Of a stretch of DNA of 64,000 nucleotides, positions 16,978 through 18,129 are shown one piece after another. The stretch comes from an uncultured Verrucomicrobiae bacterium. Lineage in GTDB: Bacteria; Chlamydiota; Chlamydiia; Chlamydiales; Rhabdochlamydiaceae. Where the stretch lies: the NCBI GenBank assembly GCA_963818965.1, contig CAWFUG010000003.1:1-64000 (forward strand), written 5' to 3'. The translations under genes were made by a program, and so were the position numbers. Below the pieces are notes generated by a model. It was not told the DNA's origin, did not search any database, and saw only the letters and a program-made list of their open reading frames with translations. Within the stretch, counting starts at the first letter, position 1, and every line of letters starts with the position of its first letter.

Positions 16978-17045
16978 GACCCATTGCCGGTGCATTTTTG
17001 CACCCTTGCTACGCATCGGGTGCAAAAATGCACCGGCAATGGGTC
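16978..17045. repeat. Perfect 28-bp inverted repeat abutting the first 170-bp element
   Basis: GACCCATTGCCGGTGCATTTTTGCACCC-N12-GGGTGCAAAAATGCACCGGCAATGGGTC. Confidence 0.92.
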
Positions 17046-17215
17046 TATACCCCTTCCACCTCAATCGTAACCACAAGCAAACCGATTAAAAGCCTCAAAT
17101 TTCGAATCAAAGGAAGGGGGTTAATATTAATTCAATATTACCCCCTTCCTTTGATTCGAAATTTGAGAACTTTTCATTCGGTTTTCTTGGGTGCGATTGA
17201 GGTGGAAGGGGTATA
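17046..17215. mobile_element. 170-bp palindromic element (MITE/RPE-like), copy A1
   Basis: TATACCCCTTCCACCTCAATCG...CGATTGAGGTGGAAGGGGTATA; whole element is an imperfect inverted repeat; direct repeat of 17960-18129. Confidence 0.85.
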
Positions 17216-17269
17216 TAAGCTGAAAATATTGGGCAGCAAAAAACAATGTCTGTGAAAATGGCCAAAAGT

Positions 17270-17614
17270 TCAAATAGAAGCCGATGGCCTCCTAACGATC
17301 CCAATATTTATCCTAGTATTGCAAATTGCACCATTTTTGAAGATGGGATCGACCTTTTCATGCGAGCTTTCTTCAACCCATAAATCATAGGCCTGCTGTA
17401 AATTAAGCCACAGCTGCGGAGTCGTATCAAATGCTTCCGCAAGCGAAAGAGCGACGGCTGGGGTAACGCTTGACGTACCATTCCTAATTTTAAACAATGT
17501 GTTTCTCGTTATCCCTAATCTATCCGCGAGCTTCTCCAAGTTCAATTTGAGAGGCTTGATGTAATCCTCTTCAAGGAGCTCTCCGGGATGAGTTGGTTTT
17601 CTTCTTTTTGCCAT
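17270..17614 (-). CDS. higA: HigA family antitoxin (HTH)
   Basis: PTHPGELLEEDYI, LADRLGITR, SLAEAFDTTPQLWLNLQQAYDLW. Confidence 0.93.
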   Translation of the reverse strand: MAKRRKPTHPGELLEEDYIKPLKLNLEKLADRLGITRNTLFKIRNGTSSVTPAVALSLAEAFDTTPQLWLNLQQAYDLWVEESSHEKVDPIFKNGAICNTRINIGIVRRPSASI

Positions 17615-17625
17615 AAAATCCTCAA

Positions 17626-17907
17626 CTAATGATAATCCACTAATTCCACATCGGTAGCTTCACCATTTTCAAAGCGAAAAATAATAGTCCAGTTGCCATT
17701 AATGTGTACCGAATAAAAGCCTTTGAAATTTCCTTTCAGTGGGTGAAAGTCGTATCCAGGAGCATCCATGTCCTTAACCTCTGAAGCAGAATTAAGGCGA
17801 TCTAAAACGCGACCAATCTTATTTCTGTGTGCCGCCTGGATTCCAGAAACATTCCCAGATTCAAAGAATTTCTTCAGACCTTTGTGTTTGAACGTCTTGA
17901 TTGCCAC
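17626..17907 (-). CDS. higB: HigB (RelE-superfamily, plasmid maintenance killer) toxin
   Basis: IKTFKHKGLKKFFESG, FHPLKGN..GFYSVHINGNWTIIFRFENG..DVELVDYH; toxin gene precedes antitoxin gene. Confidence 0.94.
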   Translation of the reverse strand: MAIKTFKHKGLKKFFESGNVSGIQAAHRNKIGRVLDRLNSASEVKDMDAPGYDFHPLKGNFKGFYSVHINGNWTIIFRFENGEATDVELVDYH

Positions 17908-17928
17908 TAAAGTCTCATTTTTACTATC

Positions 17929-17957
17929 ATTGTATCCTAAGAGGATACATTTGTCAA
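17929..17957 (-). promoter_or_regulatory. higBA promoter with overlapping palindromic operator
   Basis: Minus strand TTGACA-17 bp-TACAAT; palindrome TGTATCC-N5-GGATACA (17931-17949) overlaps the spacer and -10 box. Confidence 0.85.
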
Positions 17958-17959
17958 TC

Positions 17960-18129
17960 TATACCCCTTCCACCTCAATCGTAACCACAAGCAAACCGAT
18001 TAAAAGCCTCAAATTTCGAATCAAAGGGAGGGGATTAATATTAATTCAATATTACCCCCTCCCTTTGATTCGAAATTTGAGAACTTTTCATTCGGTTTTC
18101 TTGGGTACGATTGAGGTGGAAGGGGTATA
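17960..18129. mobile_element. 170-bp palindromic element, copy A2
   Basis: Differs from 17046-17215 at 4 positions, including one compensatory A-T to G-C pair change in the stem. Confidence 0.85.

Follow-up and report, generated by a model that had tools for sequence, protein, structure and literature searches.

A higBA module in an uncultured member of the Rhabdochlamydiaceae (G000; 2.24-Mb genome, 88% complete) lies between two direct copies, A1 and A2, of a 170-bp palindrome, which leads one to ask whether this bracket is a unit that moves genes or a product of other events. Within the 64,000-nt stretch of DNA that we analyzed (the window), we confirmed the coordinates of the first-pass annotation, which had described A1 and A2 as direct repeats with four differences around higA, higB, and their promoter (Table 1). 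That annotation had also proposed a non-autonomous element or a new hairpin-bounded cassette system. The brackets are indeed non-autonomous mobile elements, namely, dispersed, TA-duplicating MITEs; the cassette proposal falls, since IS630 MITEs such as ERIC and RUP are already a known kind, and A1–higBA–A2 is probably not a dedicated gene-moving system.

Table 1. Features at and around the bracketed higBA module, with two further full-length elements of the window
Feature	Position	Strand	Remarks
B-subfamily MITE, left end	16874..16909	+	Left limit of the DNA that the ancestral spacer lacked
Unrelated low-copy repeat adjoining A1	16942..17045	.	Ends in a hairpin with 28-bp arms (16978-17045)
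A1, hairpin MITE of the A subfamily	17046..17215	+	170 bp (166 bp plus TA per side); IS630-type ends
higA, antitoxin, 114 aa	17270..17614	-	TIGR02607, 95 bits (cut-off 47.7); HTH_3
higB, toxin (RelE-like), 93 aa	17626..17907	-	PF05015, 80.6 bits
Sigma-70 promoter TTGACA-17-TACAAT with overlapping inverted-repeat operator	17929..17957	-	
A2, second A-subfamily MITE	17960..18129	+	Same orientation as A1
Internally deleted C-subfamily MITE, 31 bp	18126..18156	+	TATA common with A2; many similar mini copies
Accessory ORF, 269 aa	18178..18987	+	Foreign to spacer; outside the A1-A2 bracket
B-subfamily full MITE, 167 bp	38938..39104	+	Same superfamily
C-subfamily full MITE, 170 bp	52681..52850	+	Same superfamily

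The enclosed genes form a type II HigBA module: a RelE-like toxin gene lies upstream of an HTH antitoxin gene, with a promoter of its own and an operator. This promoter/operator is kept in homologous modules that have no MITE (the pattern occurs at 23 of 30 loci), and two bases lie between its −35 box and A2. Such closeness is weak as a sign of a cassette edge, since element-free homologs also start unrelated DNA at the −35 box; the 54 bp after higA, considered as a permuted promoter upstream region, have no match in homologous loci. The four differences between A1 and A2 fall at element positions 69, 75, 102, and 148; the bases at 69 and 102 are hairpin partners, so two of the four amount to one compensatory change. 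A2 folds as a single long stem (−74 kcal/mol, z −17.7). When the TC common to both fronts is included, the repeat measures 172 nt (17044–17215 and 17958–18129).

DNA foreign to the spacer extends from about 16870 to 18988 (~2.1 kb), beyond both brackets. Of 24 loci of the neighboring core gene in relatives, 16 have the two flanking core genes 86 to 526 bp apart, and all 24 lack higBA at this site; the one same-genus genome carries these two genes on separate contigs, next to different accessory DNA, and has no higB match. The low-copy repeat beside A1 has a 91% copy at C9:137047–137146, and A2 meets the mini C element at TATA rather than the usual TATATA (TATA is found in 3 of 14 tandem junctions). 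The 269-aa ORF has no Pfam or NCBIfam match; a metagenome scan found six loci at 37 to 47% identity, one of which (L218) has an element beside the gene, and no close strain. Contigs of runs X1 to X3 are 151 to 261 bp long, none of them long enough for a junction pair, and contain no joints. One from run X2 (174 bp) is identical to 18126–18289 and then continues leftwards with eight letters of the IS630-type variant end, a weak hint that an A-type end might occupy the A2 site in a near-identical strain, since edited in one lineage. An Rfam scan of the window returned only one tRNA, whose gene (39121–39193) lies 16 bp past the full B-type element.

The repeat is not peculiar to this site: both sides of the bracket abut further repeats, and a BLAST search with A2 against the genome yields 45 loci, comprising 24 full copies on six contigs and 21 partial ones. 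A2 is one difference from five distant copies and A1 is three, against four between A1 and A2; the two share no private change, and each is closer to distant copies than to the other. By a search for TATA-ended inverted pairs, the genome holds 51 full elements of 160 to 180 bp in several subfamilies with different arms, and the superfamily, fragments included, amounts to about 240 clusters and 21.6 kb. Superfamily members measure 164 to 171 bp, element length is steady across families (~163 to 170 bp), and the ends are TATAC...GTATA. Multicopy, dispersed, short, and without transposase coding, the 170-bp element is a MITE.

When 34 elements spanning subfamilies (30 from this genome and 4 from two relatives) are aligned, compensatory changes show up at 45 of the 58 predicted pairs, a proportion that can be raised by relatedness and by palindrome repair; covariation also results when palindromes are repaired by template switching. 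The length added by insertion is a multiple of three for 42 of 51 copies, and elements carry a mean of 1.8 open frames versus 0.57 in shuffled palindromes (the copies are not independent). One 167-bp element (C1:218176–218342), an in-frame insertion of 55 codons, lies within a gene that has paralogs on C11 without the element and with just one TA. By a covariance model, 23 of 41 chlamydial genomes (this one counted) contain the superfamily, 15 of 24 in the family and 7 of 16 in other families, and a pattern scan of species genomes returned 91 stretches, mostly from chlamydial or unlabelled MAGs and including some chance matches. The labels of genomes that have the element, together with a Protochlamydia outer membrane protein, suggest an environmental chlamydial host. 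We found no published description of these chlamydial elements in the literature covered, which excluded ISfinder and the majority of subscription journals. Another abundant family of hairpins consists of ACCACAGAGA units and frequently adjoins, or is broken up by, the TATA elements; it is present in the window (3979–4052, 36443–36525, and 61353–61425), on many other contigs, and in G034 (67 matches).

How the elements move can be read from their insertion sites and ends. Joining the flanks of ~52 full-length elements recovered four gap-free empty alleles in paralogous DNA, of which three have one TA, the fourth having diverged, and 10 of 14 tandem element junctions read TATATA, with one TA in common. 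A transposase gene with matching ends, which the first-pass annotation had suggested looking for, was found in another genome: the one transposase among 125 proteins scanned near elements is an intact IS630 (L130:127–1164; NF033545, 221 bits, cut-off 100), whose element (57–1204) has terminal repeats matching at 26 of 29 nt, with an A-type MITE on each side. Positions 3 to 26 of its ends agree with a MITE of its own genome at 18/24 and with A1/A2 at 13 to 15/24; for 3,856 other TATA[CG] sites of G000 the mean is 8, and 2.6% and 0.4% of them reach the A1/A2 scores. Variant A ends that start exactly like IS630 are present both in G000 and in the L130 genome. The closest plasmid match to the L130 transposase, at 57%, belongs to an IS630 of Ca. 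Rhabdochlamydia oedothoracis, whose left end scores 15/24 against A1/A2 and 18/24 against the variant A end. Related IS630 ends in other chlamydiae resemble other subfamilies, with 8 of 14 falling in the top 3% of the null and 6 of 14 not. G000 itself retains a decayed IS630, a frameshifted C-terminal remnant (C9:237866–237656, within the region C9:237536–237866) that surfaced only with the L130 protein as the query and is followed by a decayed A-like hairpin ending in the IS630 terminal repeat.

These comparisons indicate an IS630 link for the chlamydial hairpin MITEs. Dispersed, flanked by a duplicated TA, and similar to IS630 at their ends, A1 and A2 are in all likelihood IS630-family MITEs of the ERIC/RUP type. 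By analogy with RUP and IS630-Spn1, the most likely mover is an IS630 transposase acting in trans. We infer this mobilization rather than observe it because no intact IS630 was found in G000 (88% complete; searches with Pfam DDE_3 and HTH_Tnp_IS630 also gave no match) or, with the L130 query, in the MITE-rich genomes G007, G020, G023, and G032. IS630 matches do not track MITE-rich genomes, and none was found in viral contigs; MAGs often lose IS copies.

Other candidate mobilizers fared worse. A REP/RAYT (HUH) identity was rejected, as the Y1/HUH transposase (PF01797) was not found in the genome (88% complete) and TA is duplicated. A GxxExxY nuclease was likewise set aside, being found in none of the element-rich G002, G007, G010, G012, and G017 yet present in G014, which has no element matches. 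G000 has a single GxxExxY (PDDEXK_3) gene (C9:277031–277375), with an element 60 bp upstream. Among 124 of 158 adjacent ORFs plus one other, the only convincing neighbor gene across genomes was the one IS630. Genes for AAA_14/DUF4143 and ATPase_2/DUF234 proteins turn up repeatedly next to elements (6 of the 125 proteins scanned; L107, L115, L129, L144, L154, and L210, as well as G000 C11:120881 and C9:325653). G000 also contains three near-identical IS-like copies (C1:260607–261808, C2:149485–150685, and C9:457884–459084) and two near-identical copies of another IS-like element (C2:48810–50536 and C9:448489–450216), neither set adjoining hairpins.

In form, A1–higBA–A2 resembles a MITE composite transposon, with cargo between paired similar elements whose outer ends match. 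Neighboring clusters 300 to 1,500 bp apart account for 28 of 229 gaps, versus 27 expected, as in a Poisson-like distribution. In simulations that place 24 A copies, two in the same orientation come to lie no more than 1.1 kb apart in 7% (intergenic gaps), 12% (uniform placement), or 17% (element sites) of cases; the closeness of A1 and A2 alone is not beyond chance. Other pairs, for which the first-pass annotation had suggested a search, enclose housekeeping genes among others: of 56 close pairs, the regions of about 22 were examined and 27 proteins scanned, and the cargo includes transaldolase, FKBP/Mip, EpmC, exonuclease, YchJ, SDR, glycosyltransferases, and unknowns. A TC front precedes both A1 and A2 and 8 of the 24 A copies overall. 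An element adjoins each of the three higB loci in this genome, the two others having one apiece. The A1–higBA–A2 unit is single-copy in G000, with no second copy among 29 homologous loci, and no empty allele of it was found. In G023, a purE/AIR-carboxylase gene and an unknown ORF lie between two same-orientation superfamily elements that are not alike by BLAST (L300; G023:C1:613591–615724). The 22-kb contig C4 of G000 (L066) is nearly wholly an inverted repeat (99.5% over 21.6 kb), probably an assembly fold-back, with arms matching the C12 end and, at its center, a small toxin-antitoxin-like pair between B-type ends.

Homologous higBA modules occur in 41 of 301 genomes (this one counted). Of 30 module loci, 27 have both genes, and these lie in 26 unrelated upstream contexts with no common flank; the element is present at none of 29 higA and none of 14 higB homologous loci (overlapping sets). 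Of the 29 foreign loci, 4 sit inside direct repeats of at least 45 bp of unrelated host DNA. None of 51 control loci does so (Fisher p = 0.015), and among the genes here the figure is 10 of 752 (p = 0.001), although the genomes are kin rather than independent and the controls are not matched TA-like genes. At L328, a 236-bp repeat (95%) of the 3′ end of a HIT-like gene encloses the module and, at L331, a 302-bp repeat (88%) of the 5′ end of a leucine-rich-repeat gene does so (both labels from sequence), each stopping ~30 bp from the −35 box; the L319 repeat encloses higA alone, and that of L330 is loose and far from the module. The homologs with direct host-DNA repeats of 46 to 302 bp are L328:1199–2439, L331:917–2466, L319:1339–1851, L317:1002–2029, and L330. 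Such repeats may mean either that higBA arrives with a long target duplication or that addiction preserves repeats surrounding it.

On balance, and with a slight lean, we read the bracket as two independent A insertions on either side of higBA, kept by addiction. An IS630 transposase in trans would excise MITEs at their terminal repeats and insert them at TA, duplicating it, and MITEs would build up in AT-rich spacers and at one another's TATA ends. The spacer left of a 129-aa gene would have acquired higBA and the 269-aa gene, and two A copies would have landed independently, one per side of higBA. Direct repeats 98% identical and 914 bp apart would invite recombinational deletion; the bracket would survive because losing higBA should poison the cell, to judge by how type II TA modules work. 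As a self-repressing addiction module, higBA brings its own promoter to any site and has no need of the brackets. Independent insertion is favored by the lack of a private change common to A1 and A2, the Poisson-like spacing, the housekeeping brackets, and the element-free homologous higA loci. Counting against it, A1 and A2 are of the same subtype, in the same orientation, and both preceded by TC, and the 4 of 29 higBA loci between direct repeats are not predicted by it alone. The element beside every higB locus of G000 and the TATA junction of A2 with the mini C element weigh on the same side, as does the lack of an intact IS630 among the matches in G000.

Those four loci lend themselves to another reading, which we regard as possible though rather unlikely: higBA inserted with a long target duplication or by recombinational integration, and the brackets are the scar of its arrival, as described for restriction-modification genes (PMC2853133 and PMC3031569). 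The excess of host-DNA repeats over controls and genes here, the L328 and L331 repeats that stop near the −35 box as here, the module's 26 contexts among 27 loci without a shared flank, and the 2 nt outside the element that the repeat here takes in are all consistent with it. However, such a duplication would need to begin and end just where the element does, A1 and A2 have no derived change in common, TC is a common flank, the L319 and L330 repeats bracket higA only or lie far from the module, and survival of pre-existing duplications explains the four loci equally well. We are doubtful, to a slightly greater degree, that the chlamydial higBA family spreads without a mobility gene via long variable target duplications, the duplicated target here being an IS630 MITE. 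Were this true, the duplicated MITE would make higBA a ready-made 1.1-kb non-autonomous composite transposon, movable by an IS630 transposase.

It is less probable still that A1–higBA–A2 (1,084 bp) formed elsewhere as a composite transposon and was moved as a unit by an IS630 transposase acting on its outer ends. These ends match each other perfectly in inverted orientation (20/20) and have a TA at either side, higBA is missing from the site in all 24 relatives' loci, and MITE composites are known, namely, TIME-COMP (PMC4133298) and MITE-flanked integrons (PMC10969869); yet the unit is single-copy and not among the 29 homologous loci, any two TA-flanked MITE copies would give the same outer ends, and the foreign DNA reaches beyond the brackets.

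We give very little credence to a new attC-like cassette system, in which a dedicated recombinase would read single-strand hairpins and excise and shuffle cargo. In its favor, structure is kept while sequence drifts (the 45 of 58 compensatory pairs), and length is fixed at ~163 to 170 bp across families, more than a DDE transposase should need, but TA is duplicated at empty sites, the ends match IS630, spacing is Poisson-like (28 versus 27) without arrays, core genes are bracketed, higBA has 26 element-free contexts, no Y1/HUH transposase was found, and for two tyrosine recombinases, tested out of six PF00589 matches, the integron-integrase model (cut-off 265) gives only 37 and 47 bits. Integron attC sites end in RYYYAAC...GTTRRRY. 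The first-pass annotation had already judged that attC cassettes do not fit, and this stands, the element ends being TATAC...GTATA rather than the attC motif, cassette arrays being absent, and the recombinases lying far below the cut-off.

What emerges is a large hairpin MITE superfamily of environmental chlamydiae, tied by common ends to a specific IS630 clade and thus offering a testable transposase–MITE pair, together with a transposase-less TA family that constantly changes place and is enriched between direct repeats, which provides a handle on chromosomal TA movement or persistence. Known systems resemble the locus in different respects. As in the restriction-modification insertions of PMC2853133, direct repeats that are long and variable flank addiction genes, and a mobility gene is lacking; long target duplication is described there for RM systems and demonstrated by empty alleles, whereas the present module is a type II TA with only filled alleles. 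TIME-COMP, IMU, and the Acinetobacter MITE-flanked integrons, as far as PMC4133298 and PMC10969869 describe them, likewise have two like MITEs around cargo and no transposase; in such composites, identical brackets recur at several sites or movement has been demonstrated, whereas the unit here is single, with no empty allele found. The Rickettsia palindromic elements are hairpins of ~150 bp able to sit in frame in genes (PMC10969869 and PMC2229807), comparable to the C1:218176 copy; unlike them, A1 and A2 are intergenic, and an IS630 partner is indicated here.

Closer parallels come from RUP and ERIC. RUP (PMC2229807) is tied to the transposase of IS630-Spn1 by common terminal repeats and TA targets, as here, and its insertions fall beside or inside IS elements, a pattern also seen at L130; RUP measures 107 bp with stops in all frames, whereas the frames of the elements here stay open and 42 of 51 copies lengthen their site by a multiple of three. 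ERIC is filed as the IS630-family MITEEc1 (PMC11434687 and PMC6267812). Like the A elements, ERIC/MITEEc1/MITEPlu5 (described in the same sources and in PMC2759123) form one long imperfect hairpin with TATAC...GTATA ends and a TA duplication, are intergenic and high in copy number, have open frames, and are assigned to IS630 by end similarity. They differ in that ERIC is 127 bp long, against 167 to 170 bp for the elements here, which fall into several subfamilies with different arms in a Chlamydiota host; the likeness was compared at the ends only. The ends of YPAL/RU-2, as given in PMC2759123 Table 1b, are not TATA. The L130 transposase is ~40% identical to those of Vibrio and Enterobacter plasmid IS630s (L282 and L283), whose ends match two ERIC ends (PMC2759123 Table 1a) at 19/24 and 16/24 by eye, and these IS630s offer a concrete candidate clade for the ERIC transposase.
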